A DNA stretch of 63,026 nucleotides, filler included, from Globobulimina sp. (lineage: Eukaryota), in the NCBI GenBank assembly GCA_003354225.1. It is 27 parts of 27 records of this genome, joined end to end, with 100 filler letters (N's around TTAATTAATTAA, not from the genome) between each part and the next. Parts side by side here need not be neighbours in the genome. Positions count along the whole stretch, not along the records: positions 1 to 2,240 come from PIVH01007963.1; 26 more parts are not named here. One strand, 5' to 3'. Numbering within the stretch: position 1 is the first letter of the stretch; each line of letters opens with the position of its first letter. A model generated the notes under the pieces. The model ran no database searches. It was not told the origin of the DNA and saw nothing but the letters and a program-made list of their open reading frames with translations. A program made the position numbers and the translations under genes. Below are positions 1 through 51,879 of the stretch, in pieces.

Positions 1-116
1 ATCTCTAAAGTTACAATAGAAACTCTTAAAATGATTACATGTTGAACAAAATTCACAACATGTTCAACATGTTGCTGACCCACAGAATGAAAATCTCTTA
101 GAAAGTGTCCACACTC

Positions 117-154
117 TTGAATAAAATGTATACAACGTTTGGAATATATCGTTT
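117..154 (+). repeat. Dispersed repeat family A, internally deleted copy
   Basis: TTGAATAAAATGTATACAAC and TTTGGAATATATCGTTT match blocks at 20872-20955 and 51772-51879. Confidence 0.75.
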
Positions 155-236
155 TTCAGACCAGAAATTTAGTTAAAATACAAGACTGATAATAGCTGTC
201 CACCAATAACCACAAACACAATATGTAATATCCAAG

Positions 237-1934
237 TTAGTTTTGAATATGTTGGAGTGACAAATCGCCAATGCTTGCGGGTGGGCTTGGTCTCAATGGA
301 GCGGAGCCATCGCTTGATAAATGCGGTGGGGAAACGGCGGGATTATCACTGTGAAGTGGTGCTAAATTATAATTTGTGGGAGAGATATAAGATAAATGTG
401 TATGGAGTATAGGAGGGGGCGGTGGAGGTGTGGAACGGTTGTGGTTCGCATTTGTTGTATCATTGCAAGGGGAGCCAACCGGATTTGCAGTGACAATGCG
501 GTTGAGTCGATCATCGCTATCGATGGTAAACACTTCATTGTTGATAGATTTGAACGTCTCGTTAATATCATCAGCGATGTTGAGGAACAATTCAGAATTG
601 TTACTAGGTGGTGAAATATGGTTGTTGAGCTGCGCAAAATCATTGTGAGTGCGGTAAAGTTGAGGTAGAGCCGAATTATGTACGATTGGTGAGTACGGAA
701 TTGCGTGCTCATTGTTATTCGAATACGAATGGCTGGTTTGGAGTAAATGCGAATCAACGGGTTTGATAGTCAGCGGATCTGACTGTGCTGTAATATGATC
801 TGAAGGTACAAAATTTGTAATAGAGTCAGAATGTTGTTGCGGAGGAGAGGGAGGACGAAGGGACTGCGTGGTTGAAGGAGCTGGGATGGCATAGACTTTT
901 TGGTTGGTGACATGGTCAATAAACGCAGAATCGAGCGAAGAGCCGGCGGCAGGAACGTAACGATCTAAACTGTCCATCATTTCTTGTGTATCTCTAACTG
1001 GAGCCGGTAAAAGGTCGCGTAATTCAGAAGCAAGATTGTGATTCGATATCTGTTGAGAGAGAGGTACCTGAATCGGTGTCCGTGCGACAGATGAAAATAA
1101 ATTGGGGATGCGATCATTGCTTCTCTCGGTTTGCACACCGGTACGGTTTAGGATGCCATGATTGTAATTCAGCGCAATTGCAGGTGCTCTAATTAACGAC
1201 GGCTGTCGTATGGGATGGTCACTGTAAATATTACTAAGAGCATATTGATGGATGTTCGACTGTGCTAAATTGTCTTCATTGAACGTCCGCAAGTTCTCTG
1301 CGGTAAGAATATCACCGCATTTCTTCTTGAATTTCTTAACTGTGCGCAAATCGAAATCGTGGACTAATTTCATGCAGTTTAACTCAACGAAATTCGCTGC
1401 ATAAACTAAATACTTTTTATTGATGCGAGAAAGGCGTAAATGAGTCCAATACAATTTAGCTAATTTGATCTGGGTCGCCGTGATACGAAATAATTCTTTA
1501 ATATGAGCCTTTGCTAATTTATTGGTCGTTGAGTTCAACAGGAAATAATACGATCGATTTAATGGATTGCTATGTATTATTTGTGGTTTACAGAGATGGC
1601 GTAAGCCGAAGATATCGAGTTTCTTATGTTTAAAAAGTAATAAATTATTGGTATGATGTGTTAAACGTAATATTTTATAATAACAGCGGCGGTAAAGTTT
1701 AATTAATCGGAACATATTGTACGGAATAACCAATTTGGAATTGAAATTGGTGAGAGGTTTAACGATAAATGTTTGTCTGCACATTTTGGCCTTCGAATAG
1801 CGCTTCATCGAAGGGGATATATTAGCGCGGTGAGGTAGTTTCCTCCATGAATTATAACAATGATCGATTGATCGAGGACATTTCATTACTTTGTGGAATA
1901 AATCCATTGTATTGGTCCGTATGTTACGACTCAT
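237..1934 (-). CDS. Orphan 565-aa protein with basic N-half and Pro/Ser/His-rich C-half; candidate retroelement-associated ORF
   Basis: Long intronless ORF with no recognisable domain, starting about 180 nt downstream of a hammerhead-like motif on the same strand. Confidence 0.6.
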   Translation of the reverse strand: MSRNIRTNTMDLFHKVMKCPRSIDHCYNSWRKLPHRANISPSMKRYSKAKMCRQTFIVKPLTNFNSKLVIPYNMFRLIKLYRRCYYKILRLTHHTNNLLLFKHKKLDIFGLRHLCKPQIIHSNPLNRSYYFLLNSTTNKLAKAHIKELFRITATQIKLAKLYWTHLRLSRINKKYLVYAANFVELNCMKLVHDFDLRTVKKFKKKCGDILTAENLRTFNEDNLAQSNIHQYALSNIYSDHPIRQPSLIRAPAIALNYNHGILNRTGVQTERSNDRIPNLFSSVARTPIQVPLSQQISNHNLASELRDLLPAPVRDTQEMMDSLDRYVPAAGSSLDSAFIDHVTNQKVYAIPAPSTTQSLRPPSPPQQHSDSITNFVPSDHITAQSDPLTIKPVDSHLLQTSHSYSNNNEHAIPYSPIVHNSALPQLYRTHNDFAQLNNHISPPSNNSELFLNIADDINETFKSINNEVFTIDSDDRLNRIVTANPVGSPCNDTTNANHNRSTPPPPPPILHTHLSYISPTNYNLAPLHSDNPAVSPPHLSSDGSAPLRPSPPASIGDLSLQHIQN

Positions 1935-2111
1935 ACTGCCGCAGTATAACCAAATCTAAATAAGTTGCTACTAAAATTCGCTCTAATATACAGGAGCTGC
2001 AATAGAAGAACGATAATTCAGTCTCAGGTAGATTAATATAATAGATTTATTTTGTGGTGTTTGTTTCTAGAAGAGGTTAATTTTCAAACAGTATATAGGA
2101 AGTTTTAGTTT

Positions 2112-2145
2112 CCGACGTTTCGGCAAAATGGTGCCTTTGTCAAGG
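2112..2145 (-). ncRNA. Minimal type I hammerhead ribozyme motif (Penelope-like variant, U3-A8)
   Basis: Minus strand CC-UUGACAA-A-GGCA(ccauuu)UGCC-GAAA-CGUC-GG: core variant, 4-bp stem II, GAAA, palindromic ACGU minimal stem III, GUC site. Stem I is only 2 bp in cis. Confidence 0.65.
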
Positions 2146-2240
2146 TTTTTAATTTAAAATGTAAAAAGTTTTTGTGTTTAACAAAATACTAAACACAATA
2201 AAGTTTATCCTGTGCAAAAAACACCAAACAAAAAAGAATA
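2139..2240 (-). repeat. Hammerhead-associated (pLTR-like) repeat, copy 1
   Basis: Co-linear similarity to 28867-28968, e.g. ACACAATAAAGTTTATCCTGTGCAAAA vs ACACAAAAAAGTACATCCTGTGCAAAA. Confidence 0.7.
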
Positions 2241-7020: not shown

Positions 7021-8366
7021 AAATAATCATTTTCTAAAAAGCCTAAATCTTCCCTAGCTTCCAAAAATTCACCTTCTTCCATTCCTTCACCAACATACCA
7101 ATGAACAAAAGCTCTCTGAGAATACATTAAATCATATTTCCCACTGATTCTCTCACTAAATACTCTAACGATCGCCGTATTATTCCCATACATGCAACAC
7201 ATACGTTTGGTTGCCGCAATATTGTCATCCGGCAAAATATTATGCATTTTATCATTCAGCCCAATTTTGATTCCCGTTGGACACCATTCCACAAATTTCA
7301 TTTTATTATTAATCTTACACCAATGTGCTGCTTCATTTGCTTCCTTCACTGCAACATCGCCACGATATTGCAGTGCCATGCTCATATATTTGTCTTCTTC
7401 AACACCAAAATCTGCTATTTTAACACAAAAATATTCAGACGACAAAGCCTTTTCAGTCAAGCTTTGTATGTCACAATTCAGCGTTTTTATTTTCTGTATT
7501 GTAGAAATCGGAGATAACGAACTGATCAGAAAGTGAAGTCTTGGGAATGGCACTAAATTGGTTTGATATGCATTTAAATCGGCATTTAGTTGATTTGAGT
7601 ACCACCGCAATCCACAAGTCCAACTTGATTCGATTTTAGCAGTTAATTGATTTATATCACTGTATGTTGGATGTTTTATATCTAAATATTTGTCACAGAT
7701 TTCATACATTGCCTGGTTGTCAATGACCGATGTTACTTCTGTATGATCCAACAACCAATGAGTTGCTAATAATGCATTGTATGGAGCTACAACGTTTGTG
7801 CTGTAAGTTGGTGACGGATAAACAGTGAATGATAGTTTTGATTTTTTTCTGTAATCCACAGCAATTCTTTCTAATATTAATGCAGCTAAACCAGAACCAG
7901 TACCACCACCGATTCCGTGATTTATTATAAAACCTTGATAGTTATCGCATCCATCAATCAGTTTCCGCAATCTATCATTAACTTTATCAATCATTTCATT
8001 CCCGACAGAGTAACGACCTCTGGCAAAATTATTTGCTGCATCTTCCTTTCCAGACAATAAAAATTCTGCACTGAATAAGTGTCGGTATTCAGACACTTTA
8101 ATATCGTCAATTACGTTACGTTCTAAATCGACCATTAATGATTTTGCTACAAATGTACTGCGGCCTGTTTCGTCAAACAAACATTTGAAACTGTTATCTT
8201 TAATGGCATGTTTTGTTGGACCATACTTTTGCCATTGTATACTTGTTGGACCATTATGCTTTCCCGTTGAGTCAATTCCATGTTCCATGCAGTAATTATT
8301 CCAGCATACATATCCAGTCTGAATTCCACATTGTCCAACGTCGATTTGAAGTATTTCTCGGACCAT
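7021..8366 (-). CDS. tubA: Divergent alpha-tubulin (retarian alpha2 type), C-terminal tail cut by contig end
   Basis: MVREI..VGQCG, GKEDAANNFARG, GGGTGSG, QTNLVPFPRLHF, RAFVHWYVGEGMEEGEF; THWLLDHTEV and FVEWCPTG as in foraminiferal alpha2 tubulins. Confidence 0.95.
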
Positions 8367-8427
8367 TTTTTAATTTGAAAAATATTTGAAAGTTTTATTT
8401 TCTCTGTCTAATTAATTTGTTACAGTA

Positions 8428-20871: not shown

Positions 20872-20955
20872 CAAACCTATAGCAAACAGTTTCGGGATTT
20901 GCAAAGCGTTTCTCAGATAATTGAATAAAATGTATACAACTTTAATATCGACCAG
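20872..20955 (+). repeat. Dispersed repeat family A
   Basis: Near-identical to 51772-51851 (GGGATTTGCAAA.CGTTTCTCAGATAATTGAAT.AAATGTATACAAC..ATCGACCAG). Confidence 0.9.
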
Positions 20956-45377: not shown

Positions 45378-46028
45378 TTAATAATCATTTCGAGGTTGTT
45401 TACAATCTCTGGCCCAATGCCCATTCTGTCCACACCGATTACATTTATCTCCAAATTTATCAAACATATCTTTTTTTTGCTCTTCTGAGTTAAATCCAGA
45501 TTTACATTCACGAGCCCAATGTCCTATTTATTTTGTATTATATCATATATCATAGACAATAATATATCAATATAGTATATATATCAATATATAATGTATA
45601 ACACATCATGATCACATACCAAATTGTCCGCATCTATGACATTTATCATTATTTTGAAATTGATTGGCGTTACAATCTCTGGCCCAATGTCCCATCTTTC
45701 CACAACGAAAACATTTCTCATTTAACTCATCATTGTCATAATCTGGACAATTTCGCGCGATATGTCCATTCTGGCCGCAATGATAACATCTCTTATTATT
45801 ATTGAAGTTATTATTATAACCACCTCGGCCTCCACCACCACCGCCTCTGCCGCCTCTACCTCCACCTCCTCTGCCGCCAAACCCTCCTCTTCGAAATCCA
45901 CCACCTCCGCCTCCTCCACCTCCTCCATAATCATTGTTGTTCCTAAAACTTGGACATTCTCTCGCAAAATGACCTTGACCTCCACAATTATAACATGTGT
46001 TGTTATTGTTGTTAAACCTTTGCGCCAT
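45378..46028 (-). CDS. CNBP: CNBP/GIS2-like protein with five CCHC zinc knuckles and an RGG box; intron 45524-45619
   Basis: [14 protein letters not shown], an RGG tract and four more CxxCGxxGHxARxC; the intron restores the fourth knuckle. Confidence 0.9.
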
Positions 46029-46771
46029 TGAATCTGTTCTGTATTAAATTGCTTTCGTTTTTAACCTTTTTTGTGTTTGTTATGCATGAATTTGGAGTAG
46101 TTGTGCGAAATGAATTCGTTGCAACAAAGTAATGCTCAACTTGATGACGATGGGATGACACCTACTCCTCCGACCTAAGTTAGTTTTTCGAAATGATAAA
46201 TTTGATAAAAAAATGACCTAAAAATTGCAAGACTGGCTCGTAAGATATAAATGGAATCAACAAAGTATAAAAGAAGATTATGATTATGATATCGGAGTTT
46301 ATGCAAAAATAAATATACAACTCCGTGTTTTGTGTATAGCAAATATGAACCAAATTAATTATTTTCCCTTTGTTTCCTCTTAGATCGATTTGCTACACAT
46401 AATTTCCAAGGATTTATGTTTATTTTTGCAGATTCCAGATCCTCATCATCTGTCACCACTTAAAATTAAGTTCTTTTTTTTTTTGACAATTGACTTTGGC
46501 CAACTAAGTGATTTTCGAGACCGCGACATTTCATGTCTCCAATGTCTACACTTGTCTTTTAGATTGGCGATCCTAAATATGATTCTCATTGATTATTTTC
46601 GTATAACAGTATCTACGACGAAGCAAAAATCATATTTAGGAAAATCTAAAATCGACCCGTCCCGATTCACTNNNNNNNNNNNNNNNNNNNNNNNNNNNNN
46701 NNNNNNNNNNNNNNNTTAATTAATTAANNNNNNNNNNNNNNNNNNNNNNNNNNNNNNNNNNNNNNNNNNNN

Positions 46772-51771: not shown

Positions 51772-51879
51772 CAAATCTATATCAAACCGTTTTGGGATTT
51801 GCAAAACGTTTCTCAGATAATTGAATTAAATGTATACAACTTATCGACCAGGGGGGTTATCTTTTGGAATATATCGTTT
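51772..51879 (+). repeat. Dispersed repeat family A, longest copy
   Basis: Contains both the 20872-20955 block and the TTTGGAATATATCGTTT block seen at 138-154. Confidence 0.9.

Follow-up and report, generated by a model that had tools for sequence, protein, structure and literature searches.

A minimal hammerhead motif of the type carried by Penelope-like elements, in a multi-copy repeat of a Globobulimina assembly

The hammerhead motif and the repeat that carries it

In this study, we describe a minimal type I hammerhead motif on the minus strand of a contig of Globobulimina sp. (PIVH01007963.1, assembly GCA_003354225.1), where it occupies positions 2112-2145 inside a diverged multi-copy repeat and lies upstream of an intronless open reading frame (ORF) of 565 amino acids. 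An earlier reading of this DNA, hereafter the original prediction, had assigned the motif to a foraminiferal relative of the Penelope-like elements (PLEs) or of the Terminons. The contig forms the first part of the stretch that was analysed (the window, 63,026 nucleotides), which consists of 27 contigs of 2236-2240 bp that have been joined artificially, from the longest to the shortest, by linkers of the form N44-TTAATTAATTAA-N44 at 2241-2340 and then every ~2.34 kb. Because the 27 joined contigs are unrelated, and adjoining pieces are no genomic neighbours, the genomic context of the motif is limited to window positions 1-2240.

Read on the minus strand, the motif opens with C2145 and C2144, the 5' strand of helix I, which pair with G2113 and G2112 beyond the cut. 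The core UUGACAA follows at 2143-2137 and provides U3 (2143), U4, G5, A6, C7, A8 and A9 (2137), that is, the U3-A8 variant of the hammerhead core, and one extra A at 2136 stands between A9 and G10.1. Helix II is a hairpin at 2122-2135 with 4 bp, GGCA (2135-2132) against UGCC (2125-2122), closed by G10.1-C11.1 and capped by a 6-nt loop (2131-2126). The 3' part, GAAACGUC at 2121-2114, contributes G12, A13 and A14 (2121-2119), A15.1, C15.2, G16.2 and U16.1 (2118-2115) and C17 (2114). Helix III is therein reduced to a loop-less palindrome, ACGU (2118-2115), whose pairing is possible only between two copies. The conserved core of the ribozyme (C3/U3 U4 G5 A6 N7 G8/A8 A9; G12 A13 A14; A15.1-U16.1; H17) is present in full, and so are a helix II closed by G10.1-C11.1 and the single unpaired nucleotide between A9 and G10.1. 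By hammerhead numbering, the predicted self-cleavage site falls between C17 (2114) and G1.1 (2113), and the distance from there to the ATG of the ORF, in the same orientation, is 179 nt. The place, core and hairpin given in the original prediction, as well as the long intronless ORF about 180 nt past the motif, agree with our own reading of the sequence.

A chance origin of the motif within the window is very unlikely, but across a very large scan some such accidents are to be expected. The exact 32-mer occurs once in the window and had no match at up to 3 mismatches in 100 shuffles; the 8-mer GAAACGTC alone is unremarkable (2 found against 1.18 expected). A generic descriptor matched the window only at this site. 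It accepts either core variant and 0-1 inserted nucleotides, demands a palindromic helix III, and sets minimum lengths of 3-4 bp for helix II, which must be closed by G-C, and of 2 bp for helix I. When the descriptor was applied to simulated first-order Markov windows (n = 300), its three stricter settings gave no match and the loosest setting gave 4. The analytic chance expectation is ~4.5e-5 per window, which amounts to ~11 across 250,000 such windows. Since accidents of this kind are expected scan-wide, copy-number and family evidence is needed.

Evidence on copy number comes from Logan contigs of three sequencing runs (X1, X2 and X3), in which the values are summed depths and not copy numbers. 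X1 holds half of the sampled words of the contig, and the shares of X2 and X3 are small. Although the label of X2 names a different organism, its sequence departs from the window over 117-260 by one difference and one gap, which indicates the same or a very close species. No run has contig cover over 301-900, a fourth run (X4) contributed no contig, and X2 is without most of the ORF. The summed contig depth in X1 is ~4-14 over the ORF, 131.8 over 2026-2100, 52.9 over 2101-2175 and 19.1 over 2176-2240, and in X2 it reaches 179.7 over 2026-2100 and 41.8 over 2101-2175. Among the 74 X1 contigs matched to the stretch, 46 are less than 99% alike, and many contigs in X1 and X2 are 85-100% alike over 2026-2240. 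For example, a 619-nt contig (X2 record 15) aligns to 2047-2159, where it has 7 differences and 1 gap, and shows no relation to the window past 2047; loose contig ends at 2034, 2047 and 2056 mark the points where copies diverge. Copies that are multiple, dispersed and diverged, as is typical of PLEs, are accordingly present among the contigs of both runs, and a single-copy motif, which the original prediction had named as evidence against itself, is not what the region 2047-2175 contains.

The repeat measures ~125-190 nt and consists of the hammerhead, ~30-95 nt upstream of it and a ~66-nt tail. Its core lies at 2047-2175 on the minus strand, with an AAUAAA-like word at the end of the tail near 2047, and only some copies include the T-rich upstream extension at 2176-2240 (minus strand), which runs to the contig end and is represented by X1 record 8 (2151-2232, 4 differences and 4 gaps). 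Within the repeat, about 20 nt upstream of the hammerhead, is an imperfect 17-bp hairpin (inverted repeat I1; 2164-2180 and 2190-2206) that is 82% complementary. The substitutions listed among the copies fall at 7 sites in the 66-nt tail and at 1 site in the 34-nt motif, namely 2126 in the loop of helix II, with none in 2146-2175. Two sibling ends outside the alignment retain GAAACGUC although the neighbouring bases have changed. The first has U at 11.1 and GGU past the cut, which would allow a 3-bp helix I as in the PLE family described below, and the second has a different 3' strand of helix II. In two X1 contigs and in X2 record 16, likeness to the window sets in exactly at 2113, the predicted cut, which gives a hint, and only a hint, that some copies may end there.

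A motif family linked to reverse transcriptase and GIY-YIG domains

The pattern TTGACAAAG-N10-16-CGAAACGTCGG, taken from the window motif and run on metagenome contigs, yielded 30 loci (L001-L030). Nine of them look like chance (L003, L005, L006, L007, L010, L011, L013, L015 and L018), eight being GC-rich and L013 having 42% GC; four are one locus in two versions; one stands alone (L004, with a plausible helix II); and the remaining 16 come from a single whole-genome shotgun set, WLWD01/WLWI01. In this last group the CC before the core, which the pattern did not force, is found in 15 of the 16, and helix II appears as GACU/AGUC, GACA/UGUC or GAC/GUC. Among 27 ORFs that flank these loci and L004, Pfam identified GIY-YIG in 5 and the reverse transcriptase (RT) domain RVT_1 in 5 (4 above the curated cut-off). 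Locus L021 has a single ORF with RT followed by GIY-YIG that ends 256 nt before the hammerhead, and in L017 the order is GIY-YIG ORF, hammerhead and RT ORF, the hammerhead lying ~120 nt before the next reading frame opens. Moreover, three copies are spaced exactly 3796 bp apart on one contig, and (CCCTAG)n tracts directly abut several of the hammerheads; example sites of the set are L021:1501-1533 and 2214-2270, and L026-L028. These elements are bona fide PLEs of the endonuclease-containing (EN+) type, arranged in tandem. Their host is another eukaryote, probably an animal to judge from homeodomain ORFs nearby.

A covariance-model search recovered 10 further copies in the 16 loci that were not forced by the pattern, 4 with U3-A8 and 6 with C3-G8. 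In the resulting 26 copies there is no mixed 3-8 pair, U3-A8 is found in 20, and the extra A and GAAACGU(C/U) are found in all. Pairing holds in 90.3% of cells over the 26 copies (18 distinct), compared with 13.5-43.9% when the partners are slid. Both partners vary in five of the eight pairs, and the covariation score of 0.42, as against 0.17 in shuffles, was reached by 0 of 500 shuffles. Covariation of the helices is thereby borne out in the WLWD01/WLWI01 family; in the organism studied here, for which the original prediction had proposed a check of stem II covariation, the copies are seen as fragments only.

The locus found in two versions deserves separate mention. L014, L019 and L023 are one and the same locus and L016 is a version of it that is ~85-89% identical; it is non-coding and was seen in four metagenome assemblies. 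It has the same core boxes, an imperfect helix II and a tail that matches the tail of the window repeat at 11 of 13 bases, and in L016 there is one compensatory difference in helix II together with a GUGA loop. The locus may be a true relative of the window repeat.

Origin of the repeat and its relation to the reading frame

We consider it fairly probable that the motif is a genuine minimal hammerhead of the PLE type within the terminal module of a PLE or of a PLE-derived repeat. The available part of a survey of minimal hammerhead ribozymes (min-HHRs) lists features that argue against a random origin and that the descriptors of its authors did not force, including the G10.1-C11.1 pair and the palindromic 15.2-16.2 (Cervera and de la Pena, 2014, PMC4209133). 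The window motif has every hallmark given there; even the extra A, defect-like at first sight, is one of them. In the same portion of that survey, U3-A8 is recorded as a covariant form of the core in elements of the Schistosoma Cercyon type, and helix I of D. virilis is given as 2 bp long. It is also stated, in the portion of a review that was accessible, that PLE hammerheads cleave as dimers (Lunse et al., via PMC6765202).

The repeat would most likely represent the terminal module, either the pseudo-long terminal repeat (pLTR) or the 3' end, of a PLE or of a non-autonomous element derived from one. A single copy cannot form helix III and has only 2 bp in helix I, and in the proposed mechanism the palindromic ACGU of two copies would build a shared helix III. 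Each RNA would then be cut after C17 (2114), so that the upstream piece would end in a 2',3'-cyclic phosphate and G2113 would carry a 5'-OH, and the cleavage would process transcripts of the element. The window copy is probably a solo insertion that would lie by chance 179 nt upstream of a foraminifer-specific, non-element gene. In summary, we infer descent from a PLE in this organism, cleavage as a dimer and independence from the ORF.

Several findings weigh against this reading. Firstly, as the original prediction had cautioned, helix I has just 2 bp in cis (CC/GG), and its next position is A.A, as opposed to A-U in the RT/GIY-YIG-linked family; in one X1 contig, in addition, helix I contains a base inserted between 2144 and 2145. 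Secondly, other folds compete with the active one. A small hairpin, GGAA/UUCC (2098-2113, minus strand), starts at the first base past the cut and competes with helix I for G2113 and G2112, and a pairing of UUGAC with GUCGG would engage both the core and the cleavage site. The minimum-free-energy fold of 2095-2160 (-10.2 kcal/mol, z = -2.3) favours helix II and the 2098-2113 hairpin. RNAcofold homodimers of the window copy and of three PLE-linked copies gain 2-7 kcal/mol and are not hammerhead-shaped, which makes them uninformative, and the part of PMC4209133 at hand reports only low in vitro cleavage of min-HHRs, even as dimers. Thirdly, the run data give summed depths and fragments rather than full copies, and X1-X3 represent the same or a very close organism.

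The database searches add to these points. Rfam gave no match at its gathering thresholds over the whole window and no hammerhead at E <= 10 over 1800-2240, and no tRNA-like part was found; three snoRNA-like Rfam matches on 1800-2240 (14.9-19.5 bits, against gathering scores of 43-91) were dismissed as chance. As a control, five loci with RT-linked hammerhead copies likewise gave no Rfam hammerhead at E <= 1. Because PLE-linked copies are missed too, the variant is one that Rfam does not cover, and its miss in the window carries no weight. A covariance model built from the 26 copies, with the window left out, scored the window motif at 39.7 bits (E 1.7e-8; next best of the 7 matches listed, 11 bits), a score that is partly circular because 16 of the 26 training rows came from the pattern taken from the window motif. 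Two points are independent of this circularity: motifs of this type are linked to PLEs and covary, and helix II of the window differs from the family by compensatory changes. The second-best match of the model, at 302-351 on the plus strand (11 bits, E 3.2), was rejected; it has neither helix II nor U16.1 and falls within the ORF in antisense orientation.

Furthermore, there is no RT, GIY-YIG or telomere-like repeat on the motif contig or on the other 26 contigs, the 42 other ORFs of the window contain no RVT or GIY-YIG domain, and tracts of CCCTAA, TTAGGG or CCCTAG are absent from the window. Nor did the other 26 contigs (~60 kb) hold a second copy of the upstream region or of the motif, as searched by blastn at word size 7 and by the covariance model with its filters off. 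On the 2240-bp contig the ORF is not flanked by direct repeats, although the test is weak because only 236 nt follow the stop codon. The original prediction had itself noted that the contig lacks RT, and Pfam finds none there. Its view of the locus as a pLTR-like unit of a foraminiferal PLE or Terminon stands in part: a PLE-type motif does lie in a multi-copy repeat, and the RT, GIY-YIG, telomere-like repeat and flanking repeat that would complete such a unit were absent from the window.

It is unlikely, in our judgement, that the motif is a chance look-alike, that is, an unrelated AT-rich repeat, promoter or 5'-untranslated stretch that spells a minimal hammerhead and has neither ribozyme ancestry nor activity. 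Such an accident would have to combine all four unforced hallmarks listed in the available part of PMC4209133, at the low expectation per window calculated above, with the extra A, the preceding A-CC and N7 = C that are identical in the RT/GIY-YIG-linked family, and diverged sibling ends would have kept GAAACGUC and three contigs would have broken exactly at the predicted cut. This explanation would agree with the 2-bp helix I, the negative Rfam search, the competing folds and the absence of RT and EN from the window, and with the number of strict-descriptor matches that chance alone would supply over 250,000 windows; the conservation of the motif among the copies could also reflect recent amplification of the repeat.

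The relation of the repeat to the ORF (237-1934, minus strand, ATG at 1934, low-copy) is a separate matter. The ORF is a real coding sequence: among the 23 variant sites listed within it, 15 are third codon positions (p = 0.0017), and X1 contains paralogue contigs that are ~85% identical; a further paralogue, P0121, is encoded by a contig of 1762 nt. Its N-terminal part, residues ~4-230 (1245-1925, minus strand), is a conserved all-helical domain recognized by phmmer, and the rest is a low-complexity tail rich in S, P and N. From 1.84 billion representatives, phmmer recovered three weak relatives, with E values between 7e-7 and 2e-4 and alignments confined to residues ~4-230; two of them are EukProt proteins of the foraminifer Nonionella stella, and one is an NCBI record. 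The domain is 26-31% identical to the N. stella proteins, and the C-terminal parts differ. The AlphaFold model of the product consists of helices throughout (mean pLDDT 63.9), and at this confidence Foldseek returned no PDB match at E <= 0.001. No Pfam family was recognized in the product, RT and EN domains included; a word-indexed search gave no match, and the ESM Atlas gave no usable one. By tblastn the ORF is absent from the 30 metagenome loci, including the 16 PLE loci (best E 0.77), and the ORF and its four relatives have no paralogue on the other window contigs. In one of the N. stella relatives (P0122), residues ~312-332, after the shared helical domain, show by eye a C-x-C...C...H cluster that resembles a CCCH zinc finger, where Pfam finds none.

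Because its domain is conserved between foraminifera with varied C-termini, and because it is absent from PLE loci and far rarer than the repeat, the ORF is probably a lineage-specific host gene and not encoded by an element. The opposite view, which takes the repeat as the upstream pLTR of an element akin to PLEs or Terminons and assigns the 565-residue ORF to that element as one of its genes, was part of the original prediction, and we regard it as quite unlikely. The position of the motif, 179 nt upstream in the same orientation, is what such an element would show, and in the L017 PLE tandem the hammerhead likewise stands ~120 nt before the next reading frame; it is also reported, in the accessible text of PMC4209133, that solo hammerheads far outnumber full elements in PLE-rich genomes. 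However, the product has no RT, EN or any other Pfam domain, the 26-31% identity of its domain in N. stella alongside other C-termini is as expected of a host gene family, and no PLE locus encodes it. The summed depth of the ORF, 4-14, also compares poorly with ~50-130 for the repeat, and no copy of the repeat lies downstream of the ORF. There is a small chance that the ORF paralogues, which in X1 are ~85% identical, share the tail of the repeat, as two X1 contigs appear to join 1962/1963 to 2046/2050; both joints have short sides of 26-29 nt, which is an unreliable size.

A very doubtful variant would unite the two, the hammerhead repeat and the ORF forming either a new hammerhead-bounded mobile unit with a lineage-specific protein in place of RT, or a family of host genes that would have taken over a module derived from a PLE, in which cleavage at G2113 would define or regulate the mRNA leader. 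Either one, if true, would be the first described case in Rhizaria of a gene family processed by a ribozyme. Regulatory use by the host, with a repeat-derived fragment as the promoter or 5'-untranslated region of the gene family and the hammerhead inert or trimming the mRNA leader, is highly improbable, for the repeat is much more abundant than the ORF, even though it lies 179 nt before the ATG in sense orientation, PLE pLTRs contain promoters according to the available portion of review PMC6765202, and the weak joints suggest that paralogues share the tail.

Other features of the window touch these subjects less closely. Beyond the stop codon of the ORF, positions 1-150 belong to a far more abundant repeat (summed contig depth 581-1132 in X1; X2 and X3 also have it) that includes a palindromic stretch at ~37-74 and in which no hammerhead was found. 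A short word just past the 3' end of the ORF (117-154) recurs on two other contigs, at 20921-20943 and 51821-51879, with 95-100% identity, and may represent either a 3'-end signal common to these contigs or a further small repeat. On another contig, an intronless alpha-tubulin gene (7023-8369, minus strand) is 64-68% identical to its nearest full-length relatives in a database of 5.8 billion proteins, which is unusually divergent for a tubulin, and this very divergent gene and the N. stella relatives of the 565-residue ORF are consistent with the foraminiferal label of the assembly. An ORF at 45615-46043 (minus strand) encodes three CCHC zinc knuckles (zf-CCHC, E 3e-24) and may be gag-like or a cellular protein of the CNBP type; no RT lies beside it on its own 2.2-kb contig.

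Comparison with known systems

The motif most likely belongs to a known type of ribozyme, in a lineage for which our literature search, among the matches listed, found no relevant report of hammerhead ribozymes or PLEs in foraminifera; two matches name these subjects only incidentally, and a further 10 listed of 21, as judged by their entries, deal with sharks and similar topics. Dimer-type minimal hammerheads are a described hallmark of animal PLEs, and protist PLEs are reported with monomer-stable ones (PMC4209133, as far as available); canonical EN+ PLEs are described as restricted to animals, bar one transfer to conifers (PMC8557442, available in part). If the preferred origin from a PLE is true, the presence of min-HHRs in a multi-copy repeat of a foraminifer-like genome would add Rhizaria to the range of this ribozyme type. 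It would indicate either horizontal transfer or a PLE or retrozyme lineage in Rhizaria that has yet to be described. For the ribozyme field this would be incremental rather than surprising, and it offers a concrete predicted cleavage site.

The non-LTR retrozymes, in the portions at hand of the two accounts of them (Cervera and de la Pena, 2020, PMC7229834; Li et al., 2026, preprint), resemble the window repeat in being short non-coding repeats with a type I hammerhead, and have been proposed there as non-autonomous derivatives of PLE pLTRs. They differ in forming head-to-tail tandems of 150-450 bp, in having canonical hammerheads with loop-loop contacts and in being expressed as circular RNA, to judge from the same excerpts. 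Unlike them, the window repeat has no tandem copy within the 306 nt at hand (95 nt of contig remain upstream), and none of the contigs could be placed on the stretch twice.

The 3' modules of EN-deficient PLEs were reportedly described by Arkhipova et al. in 2017 as carrying a hammerhead next to reverse-complement telomeric repeats. For Athena, Coprina and the Terminons, the accessible part of a later study likewise places the hammerhead beside such repeats (Craig et al., 2021, PMC8557442), whereas the window is without CCCTAA, TTAGGG or CCCTAG tracts, and the telomere repeat of its host may differ. A hammerhead followed by a short tail at the element end is common to both, with insertion tails of 30-40 bp in PLEs according to the same part and ~66 nt in the window. 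Protist PLEs, by contrast, have monomer-stable hammerheads with a long helix III in the available text of PMC4209133, unlike the window motif.

The min-HHRs of metazoan PLEs, as given in that text, share with the window motif the loop-less palindromic helix III ACGU, the one nucleotide between A9 and G10.1, the G10.1-C11.1 pair, the U3-A8 variant, a very short helix I and dispersed, mostly solo copies, and action as dimers only would be expected of both. They differ in their animal hosts, as against a foraminifer-like one, and in a helix II of 6-8 bp (flatworm, fly) as against 4 bp; moreover, the window motif has no RT, EN or pLTR pair on its contig. The WLWD01/WLWI01 elements have in common with the window motif the core boxes, the extra A, N7 = C, the A-CC before the core, the GG after the cut and the size of helix II. 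Their hammerheads differ from it in lying 120-260 nt from RT/GIY-YIG ORFs, in forming 3796-bp tandems, in abutting (CCCTAG)n tracts, in a helix I of 3-4 bp (ACC/GGU) and in flanks that have no similarity to the window, and the differences in helix II, GACU/AGUC, GACA/UGUC and GAC/GUC in these elements as against GGCA/UGCC in the window, are compensatory.

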